Made by a program: the position numbers and the translations under genes
Notes under the pieces: model-generated
Told to the model about the DNA's origin: nothing
What the model saw: the letters and a program-made list of their open reading frames with translations, nothing else
Database searches by the model: none
Part shown: piece by piece, positions 3,472-59,346 of the stretch
Numbering within the stretch: the stretch's first letter is position 1
How the letters are laid out: each line of letters begins with the position of its first letter
Assembly (NCBI GenBank): GCA_035450185.1
Contig: DAOTMG010000005.1
Location: forward strand, 7,597-71,596
DNA: 64,000 bases
Origin: Syntrophales bacterium
GTDB lineage: Bacteria; Desulfobacterota; Syntrophia; Syntrophales; UBA2192
Direction of reading: 5' to 3'

Positions 3472-4579
3472 TCAACCCGATGCCGCCGCTTCACTCAAAA
3501 GGTAAGCCTCGATGAAGCCGTCGATATCCCCGTCGAGCACCCGCTGGACGTTTCCGACCTCAAGGTTGGTGCGGTGATCCTTGATCAGTTTGTAGGGGTG
3601 GAGCACGTAGGATCGGATCTGGCTTCCCCAGGCGATGTCTTTCTTCGACGAGTGCAGCGTATCCATCTTTTCTTCCTGCTCTTTTTTCTTGAGCTCGAAA
3701 AGTCTGGACCGGAGCACCTTCAGGGCCATCGCCTTGTTTTTGTGCTGTGAGCGTTCGTTCTGGCACTGCACGACGAGACCCGTGGGGAGATGGGTGATCC
3801 GGACGGCCGAATCGGTCTTGTTCACATGCTGTCCCCCCTTGCCGCCAGCCCGGTAGGTGTCGATCTTCAGGTCTTTTTCATCGATATCGACGACGATTTC
3901 CTCATCGACCTCGGGATAGACGAAAACAGAAGCGAAGGATGTGTGCCGGCGGCTGCCGGCATCGAAGGGAGAAATGCGGACGAGCCGGTGGATGCCCGAC
4001 TCGGCCTTGCTGTACCCGAATGCGTATTCCCCCTCGATGTGGAGGGTGACACTCTTCACCCCGGCTTCCTCACCGGACTGGTAATCCAGAATCCGGGTCT
4101 TGAAGCCCTTCTTTTCCGCCCACCGCAGGTACATCCGCAGGAGCATCTCCGCCCAGTCCTGCGCCTCCGTGCCGCCGGCGCCGGCATGGACGGTCATGAT
4201 GGCGTTCTTCCCGTCTTCGGCCTGTCCCAGGATGGCCTTGATCTCTTCGTCCCTGACCGCCTCCAGCAGCCTGTCGCCGTCGTCGTCCATCTCCGCCAGG
4301 GCCTTTTCATCGTCCTCCTCCCGGGCGATCTCGAAAAGCTCCTCGAGGTCCCGCGCGTCTCCTTCGAGTCCGGCAAACCGTGCGAGGGTGGCCTCCAGCC
4401 GGTTCTTTTCCTTCAAGAGTTCTCTGGCCTTTTCAGGCTGATCCCAGAGATCCTGCCTCGCGGTGACCTTTTCCAGTTCCCCCAGCCTCTTCCGCCGGTT
4501 TTCTATTTCAAAGATAGCCTCGAAGGGTTTCCAGTTTTTTTCGGATCTCTTTGATTTTGCCCGGTAGATCTTCAAACAT
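3472..4579 (-). CDS. prfB: Peptide chain release factor 2, requires a programmed +1 frameshift (join 4579..4511, 4509..3472)
   Basis: Frame 0 is ATG(4579) MFEDLPGKIKEIRKKLETLRGYL, then TGA at 4510..4508. The +1 frame continues EIENRRKRL.. through the SPF and GGQ motifs to 3472. The slippery CTT TGA is preceded by an SD-like GAGG. Confidence 0.95.
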
Positions 4580-6993: not shown

Positions 6994-7869
6994 TCACAAT
7001 CCCCGCATGAATTCCGGTCTCAAATAGTCCGGGCGCCGTTTCGCGATCACGGCATCGAGAACCTGAAGGAGGCTCTCCCGGTCGGCCGGCAGCCTCGCCC
7101 GGACGGGCAGGTAGTTCGAGGCGTGATTGGAGGTGAAGAAGCAGTCCGTGAAGTTCGAGGCCTCGACGATGGTGCGGAGTTCCCCCAGAAGGGCAAACAC
7201 ATCCGGCAGGACGAAGGTCCCGCTGCGCCAGGCCTCGTAAAGAGGTGTGCCGGCAATGAGCATGACCGTGAGGATGCCGGCGTATTCCGGGTCGATGTCC
7301 GTCAGGATCCGGGCGGTCTCCCTTGCGTGCTTCGCGCTCAGCTCGACTCCCCCGATGCCCAGGAGGGCCGTGACCGAAAGCGTGATGCCGGCCTCCTTCA
7401 CCCGCCGGCCGGCCTCGACCATCTGATCATAGGTGACCCCCTTCCGAACCCTCCGGAGAACCTCCTCGCTCCCGGTCTCCACGCCCAGGTAAACGATCTT
7501 GAGCCCTTCCTCCCTCAGGGCGGCAAGTTCTTCCCTGTTTTTTCGGAGGATGCTCTTCGCATTGGCGTACGTTCCGACTCGTTCCACCCCGCCGATGTTC
7601 TCACCGATGGACTTCAGGATCCCCAGAAGCCTCTTCTGGGGGATGATGAGGGCATCCCCGTCGCAGAGGAAGACCCGCTTCGCCGATCGCAGCCTCGTTC
7701 CGGCTTCCCGAAGATCCTCCTCGATCTCACCCTGCGAGCGGATCCTGAATCTCTTCTGCTTGTAGGCGGAGCAGAAGGTGCACCGGTTGTGGGAACAACC
7801 GACGGTCGCCTGCAGGAGCAGGCTCCGTGCCTCGCTGGGAGGACGGATGATCGTGCCTTCGTACCTCAT
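6994..7869 (-). CDS. Radical SAM domain protein (Elp3-like core, no SPASM or B12 domain)
   Basis: N-terminal cluster motif GCSHNRCTFCSAY (CX4CX2C) and a TIM-barrel-like core (VYLGVETGS). RBS AGGA lies 5 nt upstream of the start. Starts 6 nt after the preceding small gene. Confidence 0.8.
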   Translation of the reverse strand: MRYEGTIIRPPSEARSLLLQATVGCSHNRCTFCSAYKQKRFRIRSQGEIEEDLREAGTRLRSAKRVFLCDGDALIIPQKRLLGILKSIGENIGGVERVGTYANAKSILRKNREELAALREEGLKIVYLGVETGSEEVLRRVRKGVTYDQMVEAGRRVKEAGITLSVTALLGIGGVELSAKHARETARILTDIDPEYAGILTVMLIAGTPLYEAWRSGTFVLPDVFALLGELRTIVEASNFTDCFFTSNHASNYLPVRARLPADRESLLQVLDAVIAKRRPDYLRPEFMRGL

Positions 7870-7875
7870 GCCGTC

Positions 7876-8085
7876 CTAATCCAGGTTGCCGCTGTACGGG
7901 TTGATCCTGCCATCGTGAAAACACTTGCGGCAGAAGGCTTTCGGGTCCACGTGCCCGCAGCCGTAACCCCAGAGATCGATGGTCCGGCATCCCGAGCACA
8001 GCGGGATGGCGCATCCATCACAGAGAACAACCGAGTTTTTTGTCTTGCAGACTCCGCAGAGCTCCGTTCCGTCTGTCACGATCAT
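7876..8085 (-). CDS. Cysteine-rich 69-aa protein (four CxxC pairs plus one Cys; zinc-ribbon or Fe-S-like)
   Basis: Strong RBS AAAGGAG 9 nt upstream of the ATG at 8085. Pattern is CGVC-x8-CDGC-x4-CSGC-x9-C-x8-CRKC. Tightly coupled to the radical SAM gene. Confidence 0.65.
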   Translation of the reverse strand: MIVTDGTELCGVCKTKNSVVLCDGCAIPLCSGCRTIDLWGYGCGHVDPKAFCRKCFHDGRINPYSGNLD

Positions 8086-8195
8086 CGTCGCATCTCCTTT
8101 CCCGACCGTCGCGGGTAATTTATATCATGCTCCGGTAAAACGCAAGCTGCCCGCGTGGAGTTTTAAAAAGGTTTTTCAAGCGTAAAAAACGAGAA

Positions 8196-8211
8196 TGGCA
8201 GACATCTTGCA
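8196..8211 (+). promoter_or_regulatory. Sigma-54 (-24/-12) promoter candidate facing kamA
   Basis: TGGCAGACATCTTGCA matches TGGCAC-N5-TTGCA, with the GG and GC elements at exact consensus spacing. It lies in an AT-rich divergent intergenic region about 205 nt upstream of the kamA ATG. Confidence 0.6.
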
Positions 8212-8281
8212 AAAAAATTTCTCGCTTCGATGTGCTCGAAAAAAATTTTTTCTCTTTTTCGACGTTTTTTACAAATATCAC

Positions 8282-8309
8282 TTGACATTATGCAAACATT
8301 CTTTATAAC
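8282..8309 (+). promoter_or_regulatory. Sigma-70-like promoter candidate for kamA
   Basis: TTGACA, 16-nt spacer, TATAAC. About 105 nt upstream of the kamA ATG. Confidence 0.5.
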
Positions 8310-8415
8310 GGTTCTCAACTCGAAGGAATTTTTTTCATCGATCACGGATCGAAAGAGATCGTCGTCGCAAAGATGGACACAGGGCGACCGATAAAGCAGA
8401 AAAGGAGAGCGTTGA

Positions 8416-9756
8416 ATGGAAGACAATGTCTGTCTAACCCAGGAGGCGGAGCCTCCCGGTAGACACGCCGGCCCCGCCGGTTCGGCTCTGGATGAGCTGA
8501 AGGAACAACACACCTCCCCTTCCGTGGCAATCACCACGACCAGGAAGAACAGATCCCTGTTTCTCTTTCCCACCCGCGGCATCAGCACCTGCAAACCCAG
8601 CGCACGGTCCAAGGCTTTTCAGAAACGCTTTTACCCCGGCATCTCGTCCGTCGAATGGAATGACTGGCAATGGCAGCTGAAGAACCGCATCACAGGCCTG
8701 GAAACGCTCTCGCGGATGATCTGGCTCTCCGATGACGAGACCAGCACCATCATCCGACGGGGAGGCAGCATCCCCCTGAGCATCACTCCCTATTACGCCA
8801 GTCTCCTGGACGCGATGGATCCCGAACAACCCGTCCGCAGGACCGTGATCCCCCGGAGCCTCGAATTCCATCACTCCTGGGAGGAATCCGACGACCCTCT
8901 CGGCGAAGAAAGCGACAGCCCCGTTCCGGGCCTGGTCCACCGATACCCGGACCGTGTCCTCTTCCTCGTGACGAATTTCTGCTCGACCTACTGCCGGTAC
9001 TGCACCCGCTCCCGCATCCTCGACCACGGCAACGGAATCCCGCCCGGCAAGGAGAGATGGGAGCAGGCCATCGATTACATCGCATCGACGCCCCAGGTCC
9101 GCGACGTCCTCCTGTCCGGCGGTGACCCCCTGACCATGAGCGACGAGAGCATCGACTGGCTCCTCCAGAAACTGCGGGCCATCCCCCATGTGGAGCTTTT
9201 GCGGATCGGGACCAAGGCGCCCGTCGTGCTCCCCCAGCGCATCACGGCGAAGCTGACTTCCGTTCTGAAGCGTTACCATCCTCTGTGGATGAGCATCCAC
9301 TTTACCCACCCCGAAGAGCTCACCCCCGAGGTGGGGCAGGCCTGTGCCCGGCTCGCCGACGCCGGCATCCCCCTGGGCAGCCAGACGGTTCTCCTCGCGG
9401 GCATCAACGACGACGTGGAGGTGATGACCCGGCTGGTCCACGGCTTGATCAAGATCCGGGTGAAGCCCTATTACCTTTACCAGTGCGATCCCATCTCGGG
9501 ATCCTCGCACTTCCGGACATCGATCGAAAAAGGACTCGAGATCATCCGCGGCCTCCGCGGGCACACGACGGGTTACGCCGTCCCGACCTACGTGATCGAC
9601 GCGCCGGGCGGGGGCGGGAAGATTCCCCTGCTGCCGGAGTACGTTGTCGGTCGGGACGATCATCACCTGCTCCTCCGGAACTACCAGGGGCAGCTATACC
9701 GCTACCCGGACGTGCGACAGTCGAACGATCCCGGACCGTTCTCCCCGTGTATCTGA
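8416..9756 (+). CDS. kamA: L-lysine 2,3-aminomutase (KamA/AblA-type radical SAM, PLP enzyme)
   Basis: RBS AAGGAGAG. Motifs WNDWQWQL, HRYPDRVLFLVTNFCSTYCRYCTRS (CX3CX2C), SGGDPL and DAPGGGGK. Collinear by eye with Bacillus KamA but lacks its long C-terminal tail. Confidence 0.9.
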   Translation: MEDNVCLTQEAEPPGRHAGPAGSALDELKEQHTSPSVAITTTRKNRSLFLFPTRGISTCKPSARSKAFQKRFYPGISSVEWNDWQWQLKNRITGLETLSRMIWLSDDETSTIIRRGGSIPLSITPYYASLLDAMDPEQPVRRTVIPRSLEFHHSWEESDDPLGEESDSPVPGLVHRYPDRVLFLVTNFCSTYCRYCTRSRILDHGNGIPPGKERWEQAIDYIASTPQVRDVLLSGGDPLTMSDESIDWLLQKLRAIPHVELLRIGTKAPVVLPQRITAKLTSVLKRYHPLWMSIHFTHPEELTPEVGQACARLADAGIPLGSQTVLLAGINDDVEVMTRLVHGLIKIRVKPYYLYQCDPISGSSHFRTSIEKGLEIIRGLRGHTTGYAVPTYVIDAPGGGGKIPLLPEYVVGRDDHHLLLRNYQGQLYRYPDVRQSNDPGPFSPCI

Positions 9757-9783
9757 GGATTCAGGACGCCGGGGTGCCGAGCA

Positions 9784-10899
9784 GTGCCGGAATCGACGTG
9801 CGTGAACCCTTATCCATCAGAGAGCGTCTCTTTGCACAACCCGGCCCCCCCCGCCCGAAGACCTCGTCGTGACTCGAGGAACAGGGGCAAGACGATTGTC
9901 GGTATCACCTACGATCTCCGGGAGGACTACCTCCGGGAGGGTTACAGTGAAGAGGAAACGGCGGAGTTCGATCAACCTTCCACGATCGACGCCATTGATC
10001 AGACCCTGCGGTCTCTCGGATTCCGGACGGACCGCATCGGCCATGTCCGGAACCTGACGCGGCGCCTCGCGCGTGGAGAGCGCTGGGACATCGTCTTCAA
10101 CATCGCCGAAGGCATGTACGGTCTCGGGAGAGAGGCGCAGGTCCCGGCCCTGCTGGACGCCTACGGCATCCCCTACACCTTCTCGGACGCGCTCGTCCTT
10201 GCCCTGACCCTCCACAAAGGGCTGACCAAGCACGTGCTGCGGGATCTCGGCATCCCGACGGCGGACTTCGCCGTCGTCACCCGTGACGCCGACGTCGAGC
10301 GTGTCCGCCTCCCCTTGCCGCTCTTCGTCAAGCCTGTCGCCGAAGGGACGGGGAAGGGCGTCACCGTGGCATCGAAGGTCCGCCACCGGCGCGAGCTGCG
10401 ACGGCTGTGCCGGGAGCTGATAAAGCGTTACAGCCAACCCGTCATCGTGGAGACCTTCCTCCCCGGCCGCGAGTTTACCGTGGGGATCATCGGAACGGGA
10501 AAGGATGCCAGGGCCGTCGCAGTGCTCGAAATCGCTCTCCGGGCCGAGGCGGAACGGGGGGTCTATTCGTACCTCAACAAGGAACACTGCGAAACCCTCG
10601 TGGATTACTTCCTGGCCCATGATGCCGAGGCCCGGCGGGCCGCGGACGTGGCCCTCGCCGCATGGCGTGCGCTGGGTTGCCGGGATGCCGGCCGGGTGGA
10701 TCTGCGATCGGACGGCAGGGGTGAACCGAACTTCATCGAGGTCAATCCCCTGGCGGGGCTCCATCCCACACACTCGGACCTGCCCATTCTGTGCAACCTG
10801 GCCGGTCTGAGCTATCGGAAGCTCATCCGCGCGATCATGGACTCGGCACTGAAGAGGATTCCCCGGACGCCGACGGGCGGTGCCGCCGGGAACATATGA
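9784..10899 (+). CDS. ATP-grasp ligase, D-Ala-D-Ala ligase-like family (paralogue 1)
   Basis: GTG start 27 nt after kamA. Ddl-like central and C-terminal ATP-grasp motifs (LFVKPVAEGTGKGV, EFTVGIIG, GRVDLRSD..NFIEVNPLAG). Confidence 0.8.
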   Translation: MPESTCVNPYPSESVSLHNPAPPARRPRRDSRNRGKTIVGITYDLREDYLREGYSEEETAEFDQPSTIDAIDQTLRSLGFRTDRIGHVRNLTRRLARGERWDIVFNIAEGMYGLGREAQVPALLDAYGIPYTFSDALVLALTLHKGLTKHVLRDLGIPTADFAVVTRDADVERVRLPLPLFVKPVAEGTGKGVTVASKVRHRRELRRLCRELIKRYSQPVIVETFLPGREFTVGIIGTGKDARAVAVLEIALRAEAERGVYSYLNKEHCETLVDYFLAHDAEARRAADVALAAWRALGCRDAGRVDLRSDGRGEPNFIEVNPLAGLHPTHSDLPILCNLAGLSYRKLIRAIMDSALKRIPRTPTGGAAGNI

Positions 10900-10945
10900 C
10901 TTTCCGGTCCTTTCTCCGGATGGACCGGCCGATGATCACCGGATT

Positions 10946-11932
10946 ATGAGAATCGCCGTTCTCCACAATGACGTTCCGGACACAGCCCCCCCGGACGAAA
11001 AAGACGCCCTTCTGCAGGCGGAGGCTGTCCGTTCCGCCCTGCTGACACTCGGTCACGAGACCGTCCTGATCCCCTTTCCGATGGATATCCGGGAGGTCGT
11101 CGAAAGATTCTCCCGGCAGAGGCCCGACGGGGTCTTCAACCTCGTCGAGTCCGTCGGCGGCCAGGGACGGTTCATCCACCTGGCACCGGCGGTGCTGGAC
11201 GCCCTATCGACACCCTATACGGGATCGCCGACATCAGCCGTTTTTCTGACTTCCCACAAACTCGAAACCAAAAAGCGTCTCCGATCGGCCGGTCTGCCCA
11301 CCCCTCCGTGGCACTCGACAGACGATGCTTCGGCCGACACCCCTGTTTCCGGCGTTCCCTTCATCATCAAATCGGTCTGGGAACACGCCTCCATCGGGCT
11401 GGGTGACGATTCCATCATCGTACCCGCGGACGCAGGGGAGTTGCAGGTTGAACTGGAAAAAAGGAAGGAACAGCTGGGCGGCGAGGCCTTTGCGGAACGC
11501 TATATCGACGGCCGCGAGTTCAATCTCTCCCTCCTCGAAAGAAAGGAGGGGGTTTCGGTCCTGCCGCCGGCGGAGATCCTGTTCAGGGATTTCCCGGCCG
11601 ACAAGCCCCGGATCGTCGGATACCGTGCGAAATGGGACGAGGGGGCGCACGAATACCACAACACCCCCCGCAGTTTCGACTTCCCCGCGGGGGACCGGGA
11701 GCTGCTCGAGAGGCTCAAGACCCTTTCGAGATCCTGCTGGGATCTCTTCGGACTCAGGGGGTATGCCCGTGTGGATTTCCGGGTGGATCGCAAAGGCGTT
11801 CCCTGGATTCTGGAAATCAACACCAATCCCTGCCTGACGCCGGACAGCGGCTTCGTGGCGGCCGCGGCGGAAAGCGGTCTTGATTATACCGATCTCATCG
11901 CCGAGATTGTTGCCGGGGCTTTTCGTCGGTGA
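10946..11932 (+). CDS. ATP-grasp ligase, D-Ala-D-Ala ligase-like family (paralogue 2)
   Basis: ATG at 10946 (MRIAVLHNDV) is preferred over the overlapping upstream start. ATP-grasp motifs present (FIIKSVWEHASIG, GREFNLSLL, ARVDFRVD..WILEINTNP). Confidence 0.8.
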   Translation: MRIAVLHNDVPDTAPPDEKDALLQAEAVRSALLTLGHETVLIPFPMDIREVVERFSRQRPDGVFNLVESVGGQGRFIHLAPAVLDALSTPYTGSPTSAVFLTSHKLETKKRLRSAGLPTPPWHSTDDASADTPVSGVPFIIKSVWEHASIGLGDDSIIVPADAGELQVELEKRKEQLGGEAFAERYIDGREFNLSLLERKEGVSVLPPAEILFRDFPADKPRIVGYRAKWDEGAHEYHNTPRSFDFPAGDRELLERLKTLSRSCWDLFGLRGYARVDFRVDRKGVPWILEINTNPCLTPDSGFVAAAAESGLDYTDLIAEIVAGAFRR

Positions 11933-33130: not shown

Positions 33131-33159
33131 CGGCCTGAAGGCCTCAGGCAGAGACAGGA

Positions 33160-33200
33160 AGACCTCGTACATCCCTGCGAACGGGCGAGGTCTTTCATTC
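33160..33200 (+). terminator. Probable terminator after panB
   Basis: 8-bp stem AGACCTCG/CGAGGTCT with an 18-nt loop, followed by TTCATTC. The T-tract is weak. Confidence 0.4.
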
Positions 33201-33206
33201 GAGATA

Positions 33207-33542
33207 TCAGGGTTTTTCTTCGAGCTTGCCGGCCTTGAAGGCCTCGAGGGCGGATTGGACCGTCCCCGAGGCGCCGATGTAGATCCTGACGTCGGCCGTC
33301 CTCAGGGCCGCCGTGGCCTTGCGACCGATGTGCCCCGTGAGGACCGCATCCACCCGCTGTCCGGCTACGAGATTCCCGGTAGCCGTTCCCCGGGTCACTC
33401 ACTGGGCCCGTGCGCCTGTGTTTTCAACGGCCCGGTGCTCGTTGGTTTCCATGTCCCAGAAGACAAAGAAGGGGCAACGACCGAAGCGCGGGTCCACCAG
33501 ATCCGTCAAATCCGGACCCGTCGACGAAATGGCGATCTTCAT
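33207..33542 (-). CDS. NifB/NifX-family (FeMo-cofactor-binding-like domain) protein interrupted by one in-frame TGA (33401..33399): selenocysteine candidate or disrupted gene
   Basis: Strong RBS AAAGGAG before the ATG at 33542. The two 63-codon track ORFs are contiguous in the same frame. Together they make a typical 111-aa family member (MKIAISS..DPRFGRCPFF..VENT..[TGA]..VDAVLTGHIG..VRIYIG..EAFKAGKLEE). Confidence 0.6.
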
Positions 33543-33668
33543 TTCTTCTCCTTTCCATGGACCTGTTGGATCCCGAAGGAACGCTTTCAATCCTTTGAAT
33601 CGCGAACCCGGTGGATCCTCGCGGTTTTCCGGAGGGGCCCGCCGGCGGTGTCTTTTCCATGCCGGCCC

Positions 33669-34943
33669 TCAGGGCTGCCGGCTCTTTCCGCCCTCGAGCT
33701 CATCGACGAGTTCGTCGGTCCTTTTCACCCGCTCCGCCATCTCCTTCAGAATCCCGTGGACGATCTTGGGATTCTCCCGGAGGATGGTCTCGAAATTGTC
33801 CTCCCGGATCCTGATCAGGCGTGTGTCGTCCTCGACGGCAATGACCGTTGCCGTCCTCGGCGACCGAAGCAGCATGGCCATTTCCCCGAAATAGTCCCCT
33901 TCCTTCAGAACCCGCAGCGTCTTGTCCTTCCGGCGGATCTCCACGGCCCCGTTGAGGATATAGAACATGTCCGTCCCTTCCTCCCCTTCCCTGCAGACCA
34001 CTTCCCCGCGGCTGTAGGGTGTCGCAAACCGGTCCATGATTCTTCGCGGCCCCTTTCTCGACGGCAGGGACTTCTGCTGCAGGAGGCCGGAGAGGAGAAG
34101 GGCCTCCCGCCTGCGGATATTGGCCATGATCTCCATCCCGAAGAGGATGACGACGAACTGGTAGTACACCCAGATGATCAGGATGAAAATCGCCTTCAGG
34201 GAACCGAAGGTGACGCCGTAGTTCGGGTTGAACTTCAGAAAGAGGAGAAAAACCGGTTTCGCAACCAGCCAAAGGGTGGCGGTGATGAACGATCCGACCG
34301 CGAGGTTCGCGGCCTTCAGCTGGACGGGGCAGAAGATGAGATAAAAAAGGGCGATGACCAGCGTCGCCAGAAGCGGGGCGGAGATGACGTTGAAAACACG
34401 CATGAGGACACCCGGGCTCCCGGCATAGGGCGTCATGACGGAGGCGTAGAGGATTTCGCCGAGGATCACGCCGATGAACAGAACCAGGAGGATGAAAACG
34501 GCAACGGCATTGATGAGTTTGTTTTTCCAGTAGGGAGCATCCCTCTCTTCCTTGAAAATCCGCAGAAAAGCAAAACGCAGAGACGACGCCAGCGGGGTGA
34601 CCGACCAGAAGAGCACGATCAGGCTCAAAAGGCCCCATGTCCTCTGCTTCGCCACGGCGTAGACTTCCTTGAGCAACACCTTGTGATAGGCGGGAAAGAT
34701 CTGCTCTGCGAGATTCTCGATCCCTCTGACGGCCGCCTGGGAGGTCAGAATGACGTTGCTGAGAATATAAACGATCAGGATGAAGAGCGGGATCAGAGAA
34801 AAAAATCCGAAAAAGGCGAGGGTCGCCGATGTCTCCAGTCCGTTGTTGCGCCCGAAGGACCTGAGGGACCCCCGGAGAATCAGGTAGGGGTACCCGAATC
34901 GCTCTTCGGGGTCATCGATGAAATGTCTAATTTTTTCACGCAT
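33669..34943 (-). CDS. YihY/BrkB-family membrane protein fused to a C-terminal cyclic-nucleotide-binding domain
   Basis: Start taken at MREKIRHFIDDPE. The N-terminal two-thirds is multi-TM YihY-like (ATLAFFGFFSLIPLF). The C-terminal domain has the CAP_ED signature GDYFGEMAMLLRSPRTATVIA. Confidence 0.8.
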   Translation of the reverse strand: MREKIRHFIDDPEERFGYPYLILRGSLRSFGRNNGLETSATLAFFGFFSLIPLFILIVYILSNVILTSQAAVRGIENLAEQIFPAYHKVLLKEVYAVAKQRTWGLLSLIVLFWSVTPLASSLRFAFLRIFKEERDAPYWKNKLINAVAVFILLVLFIGVILGEILYASVMTPYAGSPGVLMRVFNVISAPLLATLVIALFYLIFCPVQLKAANLAVGSFITATLWLVAKPVFLLFLKFNPNYGVTFGSLKAIFILIIWVYYQFVVILFGMEIMANIRRREALLLSGLLQQKSLPSRKGPRRIMDRFATPYSRGEVVCREGEEGTDMFYILNGAVEIRRKDKTLRVLKEGDYFGEMAMLLRSPRTATVIAVEDDTRLIRIREDNFETILRENPKIVHGILKEMAERVKRTDELVDELEGGKSRQP

Positions 34944-35252
34944 GGCCCATTCCGTTCTGCGGCATGAGAGGAGAGAGGCCCTTTCGTCGGCCGCTCCGGG
35001 CACCCGGAGCCGGTGGGGGATTATAGTGAAAGGGTTTACGCCGTGTCAAACACTGAAAATGGCGCGATCCGCCGCGACAGGCCGGGACCGAAACCGTCCC
35101 GACGGACCCGGCTGAGTCACGGGTCCGGTCAAAACCCGCTGCGATCTTCGCCTCCCCAGGGTTCATGCCGGAATTGACAGCCTCCCCGTTTGGTGCTAAA
35201 GAAGCTCGACACTCTCATTTATTCGGGTACTTTCATCCCAGAGCTCCCGTTT

Positions 35253-36683
35253 ATGTTCAGAAATTTGTTCCTGAATCTGTCGCTGAACAAGAAGCTCGTT
35301 TTCATGATGCTCGGCCTGAGTTTCCTGCTCCTTTCCCTCCTCTTCATCATCTATTTGCAGTCCGAGCGGGTCCTGGAGAAACAGCTGGAAACGCAGATCG
35401 TCGAGCTCACCCAGGCCATTCAGGTCGGCGTCGAGGAGGTCACCGGCACCGGCGGGACCGACGAGATGCGGCTGAGACAGTATCTCAAATCCCTCAAGTC
35501 CAGGGGGATCAAGGAGATTTCCATCATCAGCAACAAGGAAGAAATCATCGCAAGCACCAATCCCAAAAGCGTCGGCACCCCCGTCGGCCCCAAGAAGAAG
35601 GAATTGATCATCAAGGCCGAACTCGGTGAAAGGGCCGTCGATGAGGAGGGCAAGACCTACAACGTCATCATCCCCGTCATCGCCGGGGAGGCTCATTACG
35701 GCTATGTCCATCTCCAGATCAACGCGGACAATTTTTCCGAGCAGCTCAAGCTGAACACGTTGAAGCGTATCGCAGCCACCCTTCTCGTCTTCTCTCTGGG
35801 TATCGCCATTTCCATTTTCCTGGCCCTGAGATACACGGAACCCATACACAACGTCGTCGAGGCGGCAAAGAAAGTCGCTGCCGGTGATCTCAACCAGAGC
35901 CTGCCGATGGACCGGAAAGACGAGATCGGGGAACTCACCGAAAGCTTCAATTACATGGTGCAGAAGCTCAAGGAGGAGAAAAAGCTCGAGGAGCGCCTCC
36001 GTGAAGCCGAGCATCTCTCCGCCGTGGGACAGCTCGCCCGGGGCATCGCCCATGAAATCCGCAACCCGCTGAACTACATCAGTCTTTCCATCGATCATCT
36101 CAAGGAAAAGTACCGCCCGGCCGATGAGGCCCGGGAGAATAAATTCGACAGCCTGATTTCGTCCATGAAACAGGAGGTGCACCGTCTCGACAAGCTGGTC
36201 GGCGACTTCCTGGACTACGGCAAACCGCTCCGCCTGAATCTGCAGCCCGTCGATACGAAAAAGCTTCTCTCCCACATCGTGGAGATCATCAAGGCCAAGG
36301 CCGACACCGAGCACGTGGCGATTATTGAGAGTTACGACTTCCTGCCGGAACTGATGCTCGACTACGACCTGATGAAGACCTGCCTGTTCAACATCGTATC
36401 CAATGCCTTCCAGGCCATGCCGGAGGGCGGCACCATCACCTTCAGGACGGAACGGAGCGACGGCAAGTTCAACCTGCACATTCTCGACACGGGTGCCGGA
36501 GTTCCCAGGGAAAACCTCGAAAGAATCTTTGAACCGTTCTTCACCACGAAGAGCGGCGGGCTCGGGCTGGGCCTTGCGATCACCCGGCGGGTGATCGAAG
36601 AGCACGGCGGGAAAATCGACTTTCTCAGTTCCGAGGGCAGGGGCAGCGAGGTGTCGATCACCCTGCCCCTGGCGAGCCTCTGA
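35253..36683 (+). CDS. Sensor histidine kinase (2 TM, HAMP, HisKA, HATPase)
   Basis: H-box HEIRNPLN, N-box NAFQAM, G-boxes DTGAGV and GGLGLGLA. The ATG at 35253 is preferred over the upstream TTG. Confidence 0.88.
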   Translation: MFRNLFLNLSLNKKLVFMMLGLSFLLLSLLFIIYLQSERVLEKQLETQIVELTQAIQVGVEEVTGTGGTDEMRLRQYLKSLKSRGIKEISIISNKEEIIASTNPKSVGTPVGPKKKELIIKAELGERAVDEEGKTYNVIIPVIAGEAHYGYVHLQINADNFSEQLKLNTLKRIAATLLVFSLGIAISIFLALRYTEPIHNVVEAAKKVAAGDLNQSLPMDRKDEIGELTESFNYMVQKLKEEKKLEERLREAEHLSAVGQLARGIAHEIRNPLNYISLSIDHLKEKYRPADEARENKFDSLISSMKQEVHRLDKLVGDFLDYGKPLRLNLQPVDTKKLLSHIVEIIKAKADTEHVAIIESYDFLPELMLDYDLMKTCLFNIVSNAFQAMPEGGTITFRTERSDGKFNLHILDTGAGVPRENLERIFEPFFTTKSGGLGLGLAITRRVIEEHGGKIDFLSSEGRGSEVSITLPLASL

Positions 36684-36721
36684 GGCGACAGCCCCTATTC
36701 ACCAGGAGTCAACAGACAGCC

Positions 36722-38281
36722 ATGGCCGTGATCCTCGTCGTCGATGACGAACCCCTCCAGCGGGACATCCTGAAAACCATTCTGACGGACGCCGGTTACG
36801 AAACCCTCACCGCGGCGTCCGGCGAGGAAGCCCTCAGGCTGACCCGGACCTACAGCCCCGATGTCGTCCTGACCGACCTAAGGATGAAGGGGATGGACGG
36901 CATCGAACTCCTGGAGCGACTGATGGCCCGGGGGGAGTCGCCGACGGTACTCATCATGACGGCCTTCGGCACCATCGACTCGGCCGTGGAGGCCATGAAG
37001 AAGGGGGCCTTCGATTACATGACGAAGCCCCTCGATAAGGACGTGGTCATCATGACCGTCCGGCGGGCCCTGGAACGGTCGGAACTCCTGCGGAAAAACC
37101 TGGAACTCCAGCAGGCCCTGATGGACAAATTCAAGATCGAGGGCATCGTCGGCAAGTCCAAATCGGTCCAGGACGTCATCCACATCATCAAGAAGGTGTC
37201 GGACAGCCCCGCCACGGTCCTCATCCTCGGCGAGAGCGGAACGGGGAAGGAGCTCATTGCCCGCGCGATCCATTTCAACAGCCGGCGGGCCCCCAAATCC
37301 TTCACCGCCATCAACTGTGCCGCCATACCGGAGACCCTCCTCGAAAGCGAACTCTTCGGCTACGAGCCGGGCGCCTTCACCGGCGCCGTCGCCCGCAAGA
37401 TCGGTCTTTTCGAGGCGACCAACGGCGGCACCGTCCTTCTCGACGAGGTGGGAGACCTCCCTGCCATGACCCAGTCCAAGATTCTCCGGGTCCTCCAGGA
37501 AAGGGAAATCCGCAGACTGGGAGGCCGGGACTCCATCAAGATCGACGTCCGCATCATCGCCGCGACCAACAAGGACCTCGAACGGGAGATGAAGGAAAAC
37601 AAGTTCCGGGAAGACCTTTTTTACCGCCTGAAGGTCGTCACGATCGAGCTGCCGCCCCTGCGGGAACGGCGGGAGGATATTCCCGACCTCATTCAGTACT
37701 TCCTGCAGAAATACAACCAAGAATTCGACAAGAGAATCCGGAGGGTCGATGAGCCGGCCCTGAAGGCCCTGACGGACTTCCACTGGCCCGGCAACATCCG
37801 GCAGCTCCAGTCGGTGATCGAAAAGGCCGTTCTTTTGTGTGATTCCGACACGATCTCGCTCCGGGATATTCGGGACGAACTGACGTCGGGGTCCCCGTCG
37901 AAAGACATCCTCGATTTCGATTTGCCCGACGAGGGCATTTCCCTCGACGATTTTGAAAAGGCCGTTCTGAAAAAGGCCATGCAAAAAACCGATCACGTTG
38001 CCGCCCGTGCGGCCAAATTGCTCGGCCTCACCTACAAGACCTTCTGGTACCGCTGGGAGAAGTTCGACCTGGACGCGACAGCGGATCGCATCCCCGGCGA
38101 GGATCTCTTCCGCTTTGAAATCCCCGGCGGCGGCGTCAACTACGAAGACCTCGAAAAGGCGCTGATCCGCAAGGCCATGGTGAAAGCGCATTACGTCGTT
38201 TCAAAGGCCTCTCGCCTTCTCGGCATCAGTGAAAAGGCTTTTCGTTCGAGGTGGGAGAAATACGGGCCGAACCAGGGCTGA
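36722..38281 (+). CDS. Sigma-54-dependent response regulator (REC-AAA+), with two tandem Fis-type HTH modules
   Basis: REC domain (VVDDEP..D), AAA+ domain with GESGTGKE and the sigma-54 contact loop GAFTGA. The C-terminal HTH region is duplicated (37904..38068 and 38099..38266). Confidence 0.92.
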   Translation: MAVILVVDDEPLQRDILKTILTDAGYETLTAASGEEALRLTRTYSPDVVLTDLRMKGMDGIELLERLMARGESPTVLIMTAFGTIDSAVEAMKKGAFDYMTKPLDKDVVIMTVRRALERSELLRKNLELQQALMDKFKIEGIVGKSKSVQDVIHIIKKVSDSPATVLILGESGTGKELIARAIHFNSRRAPKSFTAINCAAIPETLLESELFGYEPGAFTGAVARKIGLFEATNGGTVLLDEVGDLPAMTQSKILRVLQEREIRRLGGRDSIKIDVRIIAATNKDLEREMKENKFREDLFYRLKVVTIELPPLRERREDIPDLIQYFLQKYNQEFDKRIRRVDEPALKALTDFHWPGNIRQLQSVIEKAVLLCDSDTISLRDIRDELTSGSPSKDILDFDLPDEGISLDDFEKAVLKKAMQKTDHVAARAAKLLGLTYKTFWYRWEKFDLDATADRIPGEDLFRFEIPGGGVNYEDLEKALIRKAMVKAHYVVSKASRLLGISEKAFRSRWEKYGPNQG

Positions 38282-56562: not shown

Positions 56563-57573
56563 CTATTTTTCAATCTGATTGAGGGGCCAGCGGGAGACGG
56601 CGTTCAAGTCATAGCCGTCCCGCCTCCCTCTCGCGAGCAGGTGCTCGCCCACGACGGCGATCATGGCCGCATTGTCCGTGCAGAGAACCGGCGGCGGGAT
56701 GAAGACCTCGACGGACCGCCTCTGCGCTTCCTCCATGAACCTGTGCCGCAGCCGGCTGTTGGCCGCGACACCGCCGACCACCGCCACCCGGGTCATGCCC
56801 TTTGATTCCGCAGCCCGCAGGGTCTTATCGACGAGCACGTCGACAATGGCCTCCTGGTAACTCGCGACGATATCCGGGATCTCGCCTTCCTCGATGGGCC
56901 GCTCCCGCTTCCGGATATAGGTCAGCAGGGCCGTCTTGACCCCGCTGAAGCTGAAATCCAGGCTGTCCCGCATGGCACGGGGAAAGTTCAGGGCCCGGGG
57001 GTTACCCGACTTTGCGAGCCTGTCGATGACCACACCGCCCGGGTATCCGATATCGAGGAGCTTCGCCGCCTTGTCGAAGGCCTCACCGGCCGCATCGTCC
57101 CGCGTCTGGCCCAGGAGGACGAAATCCTGGAAATCCCTGGCCAGGTAGACCATGGTGTGCCCCCCCGACACCACGAGAGCCACGAAGGGAAACGCCGGGG
57201 TTCGATCACTCAGGAAGACCGCGGCCACGTGCCCCTCGAGATGGTTCACGCCGACCATGGGTTTCCTGTTCGTGAATGCGACGGCCTTGGCGACGGACAG
57301 GCCGACGAGAAGGGAACCCACGAGCCCCGGCCCCCGCGTCACGGCGATGCCGTCCACGTCACCCAGTTCCAGCCGGGCGTTTTCAAGGGCCTGCAGGATC
57401 ACGGGAACAATGGATTCCACGTGTTTCCTCGAGGCGATTTCGGGGACGACCCCGCCGTATCTGCTGTGAATGTCCACCTGGGATGAAACGACGCTCGAGA
57501 GCACTTCCCGGCCGTCTCTCACGACGGCGGCCGCCGTTTCGTCACAGGAGGTTTCGATCGCGAGCACCTTCAT
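56563..57573 (-). CDS. tsaD: tRNA N6-adenosine threonylcarbamoyltransferase
   Basis: Only the last 337 codons of the 893-aa track ORF are genuine. The real gene begins MKVLAIETSCDETAAAVV and has the HLEGH motif. The upstream part of the ORF is antisense to nadB. Confidence 0.93.
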   Translation of the reverse strand: MKVLAIETSCDETAAAVVRDGREVLSSVVSSQVDIHSRYGGVVPEIASRKHVESIVPVILQALENARLELGDVDGIAVTRGPGLVGSLLVGLSVAKAVAFTNRKPMVGVNHLEGHVAAVFLSDRTPAFPFVALVVSGGHTMVYLARDFQDFVLLGQTRDDAAGEAFDKAAKLLDIGYPGGVVIDRLAKSGNPRALNFPRAMRDSLDFSFSGVKTALLTYIRKRERPIEEGEIPDIVASYQEAIVDVLVDKTLRAAESKGMTRVAVVGGVAANSRLRHRFMEEAQRRSVEVFIPPPVLCTDNAAMIAVVGEHLLARGRRDGYDLNAVSRWPLNQIEK

Positions 57574-57696
57574 GTGCGCCGACGAACATTTCCCTTTCCA
57601 TAAAATTCGGAAAGGTATATACAGGAACGACCGCCGATTGTAAACGGCCATTTTTTTTGAGCTTCCGGGTTGTTCCCGGCGCCCCGGGGTTTTCCC

Positions 57697-59346
57697 ATGG
57701 AAATCAGAACCGATTTTCTCGTCATCGGAAGCGGCATCGCAGGGCTCTGCTTCGCCATCAAGGCGGCGGACCTCGGTTCCGTGGCCATCGTGACCAAGAA
57801 AGAAAAGATAGAGTCGACGACCAACATGGCCCAGGGCGGGATCGCGGCCGTCATGGACGCCTCGGACAGTTTCGAGGACCACGTCCGCGACACCCTGACC
57901 GCCGGGGCCGGGATGTGCCATGAACCCGTCGCCCGCTTCGTTGTGCAGGAAGGCCCCGAGAGAGTCCGGGAACTCATCCGCTGGGGCGTGGAGTTCTCCA
58001 GGAGCAGCGAGGGTCCTCCCCCTGCTTATGATCTCGGGAAAGAGGGCGGCCATTCCCACAGGCGGGTCCTCCATGCCGCCGACCTGACGGGCCGTGAGAT
58101 CGAACGGGCCCTTATCGAAAAGGCGGGGACGAAGAAAAACATCTCCTTTTTCGAGAACTGCATTTCCGTCGATCTGATCCTGGCCTCGGGCGTCCGGGGC
58201 GATGGAGAACCGGCCCCGGCCGGGGAAGACAGATGCCTCGGGGCCTATGTCCTCGACGTGCAGAACAACAGGATCCGCGTTTTTCGCGCCTCCTTCGTTC
58301 TCCTGGCGACGGGCGGTGCGGGCAAGGTCTACCTGATCACATCGAACCCGGATATCGCGACCGGTGACGGCATCGCCATGGCCTACCGGGCCGGCGCCGA
58401 GGTCGCCAACCTGGAGTTCATCCAGTTCCACCCCACCTGCCTGTATCATCCCGATGCGAAGTCCTTCCTGATCAGCGAGGCGGTCCGCGGCGAAGGCGGG
58501 ATCCTCCGGCTGAGAAACGGTTCGAGCTTCATGGAGCGCTACCACCCGATGAAGAGTCTCGCCCCGCGGGACGTCGTCGCCCAGGCCATCGACCGGGAGC
58601 TGAAGAAATCGGGGGAAGAGTACGTCCTTCTGGACATCACCCATCGGGATCCCCGTTTCGTGATGGAGCGGTTCCCCAACATTTACAGAAACTGCCTGAC
58701 CTTCGGCATCGACATCACGAAAGACCCGATTCCCGTCGTTCCCGCGGCCCATTACATCTGCGGCGGTGTCGTGGTGAACGAATACGGAGAGACGAGCATC
58801 GAGAGGCTCTTCGCGGCGGGTGAAGTGGCCTGCACGGGCCTGCACGGGGCGAACCGTCTGGCAAGCAATTCGCTCCTCGAGGCCGTGGTGTTCGCCCACC
58901 GTGCCTTCGAAAGGATCGCCGGGACGTTCCCGCACGTCCGGGATGAGGAGTTGACCGTCCCGGGATGGGACCTGACGGGCGTGACCGAAAGCGACGAATC
59001 GGTCGTCATCACCCAGAACTGGGATGAAGTCCGGAGATCCATGTGGAATTACGTGGGGATCGTCCGGTCCGACAAGCGGCTGGAGCGGGCCAGGAAAAGG
59101 GTGGAGCTCATCCGGCAGGAGATACACGAATATTACAGGAAGTTCACCGTCACCAGGGACCTTCTGGAACTTCGGAACATCACCATCGTGGCGAAACTCA
59201 TCATCGAGTGCGCCATGTCGCGAAAAGAGAGCCGGGGTCTCCACTACAACATCGACTACCCCGACCGGGATGACCGGAACTGGCTCCGGGACACCGTCCT
59301 CAAAAGGCCGACCGGAAACCCCCGAAAGCCCCGGGCCTTCTCCTGA
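57697..59346 (+). CDS. nadB: L-aspartate oxidase
   Basis: FAD motif DFLVIGSGIAGL, a succinate dehydrogenase/fumarate reductase-like flavoprotein fold, and HGANRLASNSLLE. Confidence 0.93.
   Translation: MEIRTDFLVIGSGIAGLCFAIKAADLGSVAIVTKKEKIESTTNMAQGGIAAVMDASDSFEDHVRDTLTAGAGMCHEPVARFVVQEGPERVRELIRWGVEFSRSSEGPPPAYDLGKEGGHSHRRVLHAADLTGREIERALIEKAGTKKNISFFENCISVDLILASGVRGDGEPAPAGEDRCLGAYVLDVQNNRIRVFRASFVLLATGGAGKVYLITSNPDIATGDGIAMAYRAGAEVANLEFIQFHPTCLYHPDAKSFLISEAVRGEGGILRLRNGSSFMERYHPMKSLAPRDVVAQAIDRELKKSGEEYVLLDITHRDPRFVMERFPNIYRNCLTFGIDITKDPIPVVPAAHYICGGVVVNEYGETSIERLFAAGEVACTGLHGANRLASNSLLEAVVFAHRAFERIAGTFPHVRDEELTVPGWDLTGVTESDESVVITQNWDEVRRSMWNYVGIVRSDKRLERARKRVELIRQEIHEYYRKFTVTRDLLELRNITIVAKLIIECAMSRKESRGLHYNIDYPDRDDRNWLRDTVLKRPTGNPRKPRAFS

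Follow-up and report, generated by a model that had tools for sequence, protein, structure and literature searches.

A probable selenoprotein of the NifX/ORP-like family (PF02579) in Syntrophales bacteria

We analyzed a 64,000-nucleotide stretch of contig DAOTMG010000005.1 (assembly GCA_035450185.1) from a Syntrophales bacterium, hereafter the window, with a focus on a small gene of the PF02579 (Nitro_FeMo-Co) family that contains an in-frame TGA. Two open reading frames (ORFs) on the minus strand, 33399..33590 and 33207..33398, share one frame and are parted solely by this TGA. An initial annotation of the DNA had described this arrangement and proposed either a selenocysteine (Sec) codon or a recently inactivated gene. 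The ORF listing and translation confirmed the arrangement, and all coordinates of that annotation were correct. Read from its ATG, the joined product consists of 47 amino acids, the TGA codon and 63 further amino acids, and it is indeed the 111-residue NifB/NifX-type protein that had been suggested: with Cys substituted at the TGA, it matched the PF02579 profile end to end (positions 3-93 of 94, 76 bits, cut-off 26.3), the first half covering profile positions 3-31 and the second half 44-93. The residues around position 48 are AVENTGARAQUVTR (in short AQUVTR, where U is Sec), and the C-terminal half contains the peptide GTATGNLVAGQR. A direct read also bore out the claim that only the first half has a ribosome-binding site; no Shine-Dalgarno (SD)-like motif precedes the second half in the window sequence. 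The features of the locus are listed in Table 1.

Table 1. Features of the PF02579 gene and its surroundings in the window
Feature	Position	Strand	Remarks
Putative Sec-containing PF02579 (NifX/ORP-like) gene	33207..33542	-	111 codons; from sequence, ORFs, translation, Pfam and orthologs
Start codon ATG	33542..33540	-	direct read of sequence
In-frame UGA, residue 48, probably read as Sec	33401..33399	-	TGA at the aligned column in relatives; Cys in full-length homologs
True stop codon TGA	33209..33207	-	direct read
SD sequence AAAGGAG of the whole gene	33554..33548	-	6 nt 5' of the ATG
Cys23 codon, motif D-P-R-F-G-R-C	33474..33476	-	invariant in subfamily; proposed partner of Sec48
Upper stem-loop of selenocysteine insertion sequence (SECIS) type	33362..33385	-	7-bp stem CGGCUAC 33385..33379 / GUAGCCG 33368..33362; fold and covariation
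Hairpin loop CGGGAAUCUC	33378..33369	-	10 nt counted from the invariant stem
Extended hairpin with lower stem ACCCG 33395..33391 / CGGGU 33356..33352	33352..33395	-	fold of the 44-nt element
Candidate bidirectional terminator, inverted repeat AAGACCTCG-N18-CGAGGTCTT	33159..33194		between the stop of the PF02579 gene and convergent panB; direct read, weakly indicated
YihY/BrkB membrane protein fused to cyclic-nucleotide-binding domain	33669..35003	-	126 nt upstream of the PF02579 gene
HAMP histidine kinase and sigma54-dependent response regulator	35190..38281	+	divergent from the BrkB gene

Related loci were collected by scanning contigs of a one-genome-per-species set and metagenome contigs of the Joint Genome Institute (JGI) with unbiased peptide patterns, which gave 160 loci, and the state of the TGA column was determined by tblastn against all collected loci; one locus, L173, was obtained later and added. 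TGA was present at exactly the same column in 118 related loci, which comprise 87 distinct sequences and extend down to 55% protein identity. Six loci (L007, L008, L009, L032, L154 and L173) had a Cys codon (TGT or TGC) there, and Cys codons were the sole sense codons ever found at this column. The closest full-length homologs (P0001, P0004-8 and P0010; 55-64% identical) also have Cys at the column. The initial annotation had pointed to the aligned position in homologs as informative, and Cys or TGA is what they share there. Outgroup PF02579 sequences have neither TGA nor Cys at this column; an unrelated GGAGIQ loop stands in its place. Four database proteins (P0002, P0003, P0014 and P0028) show Trp at the column, and other homologs are represented by 63-residue C-terminal halves. 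The DNA behind the Trp forms is TGA, apparently translated under genetic code 4 by metagenome gene callers (the spurious calls lie on short contigs, L003:247-579, L004:140-490, L005:376-630 and L006:49-408), and behind the C-terminal halves the N-terminal half and TGA precede in frame. A profile search with the Cys forms against 1.84 billion representatives returned P0010 as the sole member of the subfamily, the other top matches being without the motif.

The second line of evidence is the hairpin downstream of the TGA. The initial annotation had described a CGGCUAC/GUAGCCG stem that begins 13 nt past the UGA and encloses a 10-nt loop, and both reading and folding of the sequence reproduced it. 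Its minimum free energy (MFE) is -11.5 kcal/mol, and that of the 44-nt element including the lower stem is -22.7 kcal/mol; the lower stem is found in the clade of the window and is predicted in some clades only, so that it is not conserved family-wide. Published constraints for the bacterial SECIS (bSECIS) are an upper stem of 4-16 bp, a loop of 3-9 nt with G in the first two loop positions, a distance of 16-37 nt from UGA to loop and an MFE of at most -7.5 kcal/mol. The hairpin has an upper stem of 7 bp (8 with a C bulge), a loop that starts with C-G-G-G, a UGA-loop distance of 20-22 nt and an MFE within the limit, and it agrees with the bSECIS model except for a borderline loop length (see below). 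Rfam gave chance-level matches only at this position.

When 87 segments, each beginning with the TGA, were aligned without gaps, the seven stem pairs were formed in 99.8% of 574 cells (82 distinct sequences); when the 3' arm was slid by 1-3 nt as a control, pairing fell to 5-58%. Compensatory changes were seen at pair 21-36 (U-A in 71 sequences, U-G in 7, C-G in 3 and G-U in 1), and the neighboring pairs varied between A-U (66) and G-U (16) at 22-35 and between C-G (79) and U-G (3) at 20-37. These comparisons strongly support the view that the hairpin is an RNA element of the SECIS type under selection. One Cys form deserves separate mention. Within a Sec clade, L173 has TGT at the column (L173:523-525) with the hairpin CGGCTAC-N10-GTAGCCG intact, and lies at a different locus beside an HU-like gene; with the hairpin intact in a TGT form inside a Sec clade, the replacement of Sec by Cys seems to have happened very recently.

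Several explanations other than Sec have to be considered. The UGA might be read through without Sec, either by hairpin-stimulated near-cognate decoding (Trp, Cys or Arg) or after UGA reassignment; the Sec machinery is unseen in the available sequence, and some gene callers put Trp at the site under code 4. However, the genetic code is standard, because TGA terminates most genes of the window and prfB keeps a UGA-dependent frameshift. Moreover, such read-through leaves unexplained why Cys is the sole sense alternative, a pattern typical of Sec/Cys exchange; in its position and its G-containing loop the hairpin resembles a bacterial SECIS, and the lineage is rich in selenoproteins. Read-through without Sec is therefore very unlikely.

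The prfB gene itself, which codes for release factor 2 (RF2; PCRF and RF-1 domains), is located at 3472..4578 on the minus strand with its ATG at 4578, and its +1 frameshift site lies at about 4512..4506. The site reads GGC TAT CTT TGA AAT, in which TGA A replaces the TGA C of E. coli; the canonical form CTTTGAC is absent from the window and CTT TGA A is present. With this frameshift, the window contains a second recoding event that depends on UGA, and RF2 competes with Sec insertion.

A split gene was also considered, in which ribosomes terminate at the TGA and re-initiate on the GTG next to it, so that chains of 47 and 63 residues assemble into a NifX-like fold. The window sequence TGAGTG does offer GTG as a possible start, and gene callers use it (P0009). 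However, among 112 orthologs the codon right after the TGA was GTG in only 31; it was ATC in 51 and GTC in 13, with ATA, ATT, ACC and ACG in the others. An SD-like motif combined with a start codon after the TGA was found in none of 59 distinct contexts, and an SD-like motif precedes the true start in 104 of 106 orthologs. Re-initiation after the TGA thus fails, since the next codon is mostly not a start codon and the combination of SD-like motif and start codon does not occur. In addition, the Cys forms are unbroken, continuous single chains, and the cut would fall inside a loop-helix element of the domain. The split gene is highly improbable.

It might further be argued that the hairpin has no RNA function and is a by-product of the conserved peptide T-A-T-G-N-L-V-A, which is conserved in both Sec and Cys forms, the more so as the single-sequence z-score is modest. 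Against this, codon choice in the stem is near-frozen (ACG in 94 of 94 sequences, GCU in 86 of 90, ACC in 75 of 76, GGG in 93 of 94, GUA in 82 of 94 and GCC in 92 of 94), including four-fold third positions, whereas the same amino acids use 3-4 codons elsewhere. The synonymous entropy is 0-0.6 bit in stem codons versus 1.1-1.9 bits where Thr, Ala, Gly and Val are encoded in other parts of the gene. GCU and GUA are rare elsewhere in the gene but near-fixed in the stem, where their third bases pair with each other. The changes that do occur in the stem are compensatory, and three old Cys forms (L009, L032 and L154) have 1-3 stem mismatches despite the similar peptide T-[AT]-T-G-N-L-V-A. A by-product of the peptide thus has very little to recommend it, and we give it hardly more than marginal probability.

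Recent inactivation, the other option left by the initial annotation, supposes that a NifX-like gene was cut short by a nonsense mutation and that the downstream ORF is decaying. A lone in-frame TGA for which no read-through is annotated looks so at first sight, and gene callers report two 63-residue ORFs. However, the identical TGA column recurs in distinct sequences whose residues differ by up to 45%, and the panB-adjoining locus has been kept across deep clades. There was no other in-frame stop in 112 orthologous sequences, and the ratio of nonsynonymous to synonymous substitution rates (dN/dS) was 0.16-0.19 upstream of the TGA and ~0.26 downstream, which indicates purifying selection on both halves. 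Since other stops are missing and dN/dS is low, both halves are kept as coding in one frame, and inactivation is contradicted to the point of being extremely unlikely. The conserved TGA column, the Cys exchange and the selected hairpin favor a selenoprotein over an inactivated gene, as the initial annotation had allowed. A sequencing or assembly error at 33399..33401, an a priori possibility only, can be dismissed as having negligible probability because at least 23 contigs, from separate assemblies, carry the version of the window at 99% identity and with the same TGA, and the TGA is found in orthologs as well.

It is highly likely, therefore, that window positions 33542..33207 code for a genuine selenoprotein in which UGA48 is recoded to Sec, a protein of a narrow PF02579 subfamily and a proposed cluster carrier. 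Recoding of UGA48 by the standard bacterial mechanism is well supported by the comparative sequence data. By this route, the intragenic SECIS hairpin, with its stem downstream of the UGA and its G-rich apical loop, would recruit SelB with Sec-tRNA(Sec), and SelB-GTP-Sec-tRNA(Sec) at the hairpin would decode the UGA at codon 48 as Sec in competition with RF2, as is established for bacterial Sec insertion. The gene resembles bacterial selenoprotein genes such as E. coli fdhF in having a UGA within the ORF, an intragenic stem-loop directly downstream of it, a G in the loop and Cys homologs. It differs from them in that Sec forms outnumber Cys forms (118 vs 6 loci), the reverse of most families.

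Some observations limit the case for Sec. Genes for SelA, SelB and SelD and tRNA-Sec were not found in the ~84 kb that could be read (the 64-kb window and ~20 kb of flanks) of a genome of several Mb, a share too small to speak for or against Sec. Rfam and ARAGORN detected six ordinary tRNAs and no tRNA-Sec in the window, ARAGORN found no tRNA-Sec over all related loci, and tblastn with E. coli SelD (an approximate query sequence) had no match in the window, the flanks or the related loci. The hairpin, taken as a single sequence, is within chance: the 71-nt fold has a z-score of -1.5, 14 of 200 shuffled sequences fold as well, and ~1.7% of the TGA triplets in the window (59.5% G+C) are followed at about this spacing by a perfect 7-bp hairpin. 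In addition, the loop counted from the invariant stem is 10 nt, one above the upper limit of the model; it is 7 nt if the pair G25-C33 is counted, and this pair is not universal in the family, so this constraint is borderline. The significance of the hairpin thus derives from the comparative data (pairing, compensatory changes and lost synonymous variation) and not from the single sequence.

Because no component was found in readable sequence, the Sec machinery of this genome is assumed from its lineage. Syntrophus aciditrophicus has 19 selenoproteins including SelD, and a HesB-like selenoprotein is among its proteins (PMC1794560). The window is collinear with two metagenome-assembled genomes (MAGs) of Syntrophaceae/Syntrophales, with 78-79% nucleotide identity over ~18 of 21 kb. 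By analogy with S. aciditrophicus, the lineage is one that uses Sec and is rich in selenoproteins.

To place the protein among known folds, a profile of homologs including Cys forms was searched against structures, and an AlphaFold2 model was examined for the Cys form P0001 (64% identical), which stands in for the window protein. The best profile match was the apo orange protein (ORP) of Desulfovibrio gigas (2WFB, E-value 1.4e-31), followed by TM1290, MTH1175, TM1816 and PH0822. The P0001 model has a mean predicted local distance difference test (pLDDT) score of 85, and Foldseek aligned it with 2WFB at a template modeling (TM) score of 0.90 and a root-mean-square deviation of 1.5 Å; 1RDU and 1O13 were also matched, and NafY (1P90) and NifX in the NifEN complex (9IAN) appeared further down the list. 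Invariant or near-invariant positions of the subfamily are C23, U/C48, R51, T53, G56 and a T-G-H-I-G motif; His71 is replaced in a few members. The segment U-[VI]-T-R-G-T-A-T-G-N-L-V-A-G stands in place of the usual GGAGIQ loop, and an Arg19-Phe-Gly motif is found in the window protein and across the subfamily.

ORP (2WFB; DVU2108; D. gigas and D. vulgaris), a protein that binds a Mo-Cu-S heterometallic cluster, is thus the best match to the Sec family in both sequence and fold, and it shares with it the size, the single PF02579 domain, the sequence D-P-R-F-G-R with Arg at the His site and occurrence in strict anaerobes. However, ORP is without Sec, has Ser-His-Gly-Ala-Gly-Ile where the present family has Sec-Val-Thr-Arg-Gly-Thr, and has Ala in place of Cys23. 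The operons also differ, since orp operons contain MrpORP-type ATPases and are under OrpR/sigma54 control (PMC6345978, PMC8359166). No MrpORP-type, Mrp or NBP35 ATPase gene was found within ±10 kb of the Sec gene, so the orp operon context, which also includes additional genes of the PF02579 family, is missing, and no sigma54 site (TGGCAC-N5-TTGC-like, as in orp operons) was seen by eye in 33543..33668.

NifX, NafY and the C-terminal domain of NifB have the same Pfam domain and fold, and their (H/R)-F-G loop, with the adjacent helical lobe, binds a complex inorganic cluster. Sequence similarity to them is much lower than to ORP, and their cofactor His is replaced by Arg19 in the Sec family. 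This His, in the motif His-Phe-Gly, ligates the cofactor and is required in NifX (H35) and NafY (H121). There were no nif or vnf genes in the window, the flanks or the related loci examined. Because its motif is Arg-Phe-Gly as in ORP and nif genes are not nearby, the Sec protein is not a nitrogenase cofactor carrier.

Other known members of the fold give possible equivalents for Cys23 and Sec48. In motif register (rather than by superposition), Cys23 of R-F-G-R-C would correspond to C125 of NafY (H121-F-G-S-C125) and to the HFGHC Cys of the PF02579 (Di-Nase) domain of MrpORP, which has been proposed as a ligand of a [3Fe-4S] cluster. Judged likewise by motif offset and not by superposition, Sec48, at the start of the helical lobe, may correspond to the region of NafY residues 149-162, a part of the helical lobe in which bound FeMo-co broadens the NMR signals.

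All named genomes that carry the subfamily are Syntrophales, Syntrophaceae, Syntrophus or unclassified "Deltaproteobacteria" MAGs, and no isolate carrying the Sec gene is known. Carriers of the TGA form include DAIMEJ01, CAZJPV01, JAPLJU01, the bin with Ga0255344_1000057 and a 1-Mb Syntrophaceae contig (with NPV03391.1), and OY764159.1 has a Cys form. As far as sampled, the subfamily thus appears confined to Syntrophales and related "Deltaproteobacteria" MAGs. The hosts are syntrophic oxidizers of fatty acids and aromatics in digesters, sludge and sediments, and their energy metabolism already relies on Se, W/Mo and Fe-S enzymes. In a neighbor-joining tree (110 columns, no bootstrap), the subfamily came out as a monophyletic group at the end of a long branch. 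Within it, the old Cys forms made up one small clade nested among the Sec forms, and they sit at a different locus. Sec is apparently ancestral, with Cys as a rare secondary replacement.

In nearly all loci the Sec gene and panB are convergent, and the panB-adjoining locus is retained across deep clades. The upstream gene differs by clade; the BrkB/YihY membrane protein with the cyclic-nucleotide-binding domain is present on the same strand in ~68 loci. A MoaE-like gene lies upstream on the same strand in 9 loci, 6 of which have no IscU-like gene, and in L019, L030 and L132 the order is MoaE-like, IscU/NifU_N-like and Sec gene, tightly spaced on one strand. In L030 (9127-10330), where the ORF coordinates were checked, the stop of the IscU-like gene is 13-19 nt before the start of the Sec gene. 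Divergent feoA/feoB genes are located upstream in ~14 loci (including L037, L165, L143, L025, L028, L039, L027 and L157), at times together with a 76-residue 2x[4Fe-4S] ferredoxin. These neighbors in relatives point to the handling of iron, Fe-S clusters and molybdenum cofactor; the association is restricted to certain clades, and inherited gene order may account for part of it.

Around the Sec gene of the window, no sigma-70 promoter and no convincing terminator on the strand of the gene were detected by scanning. The inverted repeat at 33159..33194 was not called by the consensus terminator scan, because its loop exceeds 8 nt and a clear T-run is missing.

With regard to function, a site that tolerates only Sec or Cys marks a functional site and suggests covalent chemistry (ligand or redox) at a pocket-facing loop. 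In the mechanism that we propose, Sec48 would be placed in the loop that opens the helical lobe lining the cofactor site of the fold. Together with Cys23 it would ligate, or handle by redox chemistry, an inorganic Fe-S or Mo/W-S cluster, as the fold, the motif position and the genomic context suggest, and the protein would act as a small cluster carrier and not as a nitrogenase chaperone. More specifically, it is possible, albeit rather unlikely, that an inorganic Fe-S or Mo/W-S cluster is ligated directly by Sec48, in a carrier of the NifX/ORP fold that was born as a selenoprotein in Syntrophales and is functionally tied to the IscU-like, MoaE-like and FeoAB genes. If this were true, the protein would be the first selenocysteine-ligated metallocluster chaperone, and would provide the first functional handle on a large uncharacterized group of stand-alone PF02579 proteins of anaerobes. 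To our knowledge, such stand-alone NifX/ORP-like proteins, widespread in anaerobes, have no agreed function.

A number of facts speak against this functional assignment. The pLDDT falls to ~65 for residues 41-60 of the P0001 model, a segment that includes the Sec position, and the Sec loop is where the model is least confident. NafY can bind its cofactor without the Cys at the corresponding place in the motif. Finally, the neighbors in the window itself, the BrkB/cyclic-nucleotide-binding protein and panB, say little on function.

Sec in small metal-cluster proteins that are not of the thioredoxin fold has precedents in the HesB-like, 2Fe-2S-binding CopZ-like and nitrogenase component I alpha (RxU) selenoproteins (PMC13188914, Table 1). 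However, these have unrelated folds and motifs (UxGP, GxUC etc.) and none belongs to PF02579. A May 2026 review of 119 prokaryotic selenoprotein families and subfamilies has no PF02579 or NifX-like entry (PMC13188914), in line with the initial annotation, which did not recognize it as an established selenoprotein family. No NifX/ORP-like family is listed in the S. aciditrophicus selenoproteome of 2006 either (PMC1794560), and the deep-Sep supplements have no NifX entry. A search for literature linking selenoproteins with NifX, dinitrogenase iron-molybdenum cofactor, COG1433, PF02579 or Nitro_FeMo-Co found nothing relevant. NCBIfam release 20 has no model for the family, and the sole match, to MrpORP, scored 28.8 bits where the cut-off is 450. 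The new points are the place of the family in the selenoproteome and its near-exclusive use of Sec; the recoding follows the conventional mechanism, and the fold was known before. The family would add to the prokaryotic selenoproteome an unusual case, which is almost all Sec and is not a thioredoxin-fold redox enzyme.

In GenBank and Integrated Microbial Genomes (IMG), the gene is present only as fragments or as TGA=Trp mistranslations. All database entries seen for it are wrong, being either a C-terminal fragment of 44-70 residues (e.g., GenBank NPV03391.1), a 47-residue N-terminal fragment or a full-length protein with Trp (code 4). A 48-residue fragment is labeled "NifB/NifX family molybdenum-iron cluster-binding protein" in GenBank. 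A rule that combines a PF02579 match, TGA and U-[VI]-T-R-G-T would repair more than 100 entries.

A gene map of the window based on G+C content at third codon positions was also inspected for other TGA-split genes, and the candidates proved to be only ordinary adjacent genes (acpS/tsaE, radical-SAM/CorC and phoH/ybeY). Elsewhere in the window, a cluster at 6994..11932 consists of a radical-SAM protein (6994..7869, minus strand), a 69-residue Cys-rich ORF (7876..8085, minus strand), a lysine-2,3-aminomutase-like radical-SAM protein (8416..9756, plus strand) and two D-Ala-D-Ala-ligase-like ATP-grasp proteins (9784..11932, plus strand), and it is conserved in other contigs of the same organism (L175). 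An 893-residue ORF at 56563..59244 on the minus strand was rejected as one of the artefactual long open frames of G+C-rich DNA. At this place the identical contig L174 carries a 336-residue TsaD on the minus strand and, on the other strand, a 549-residue FAD-binding gene (Succ_DH/aspartate-oxidase-like).

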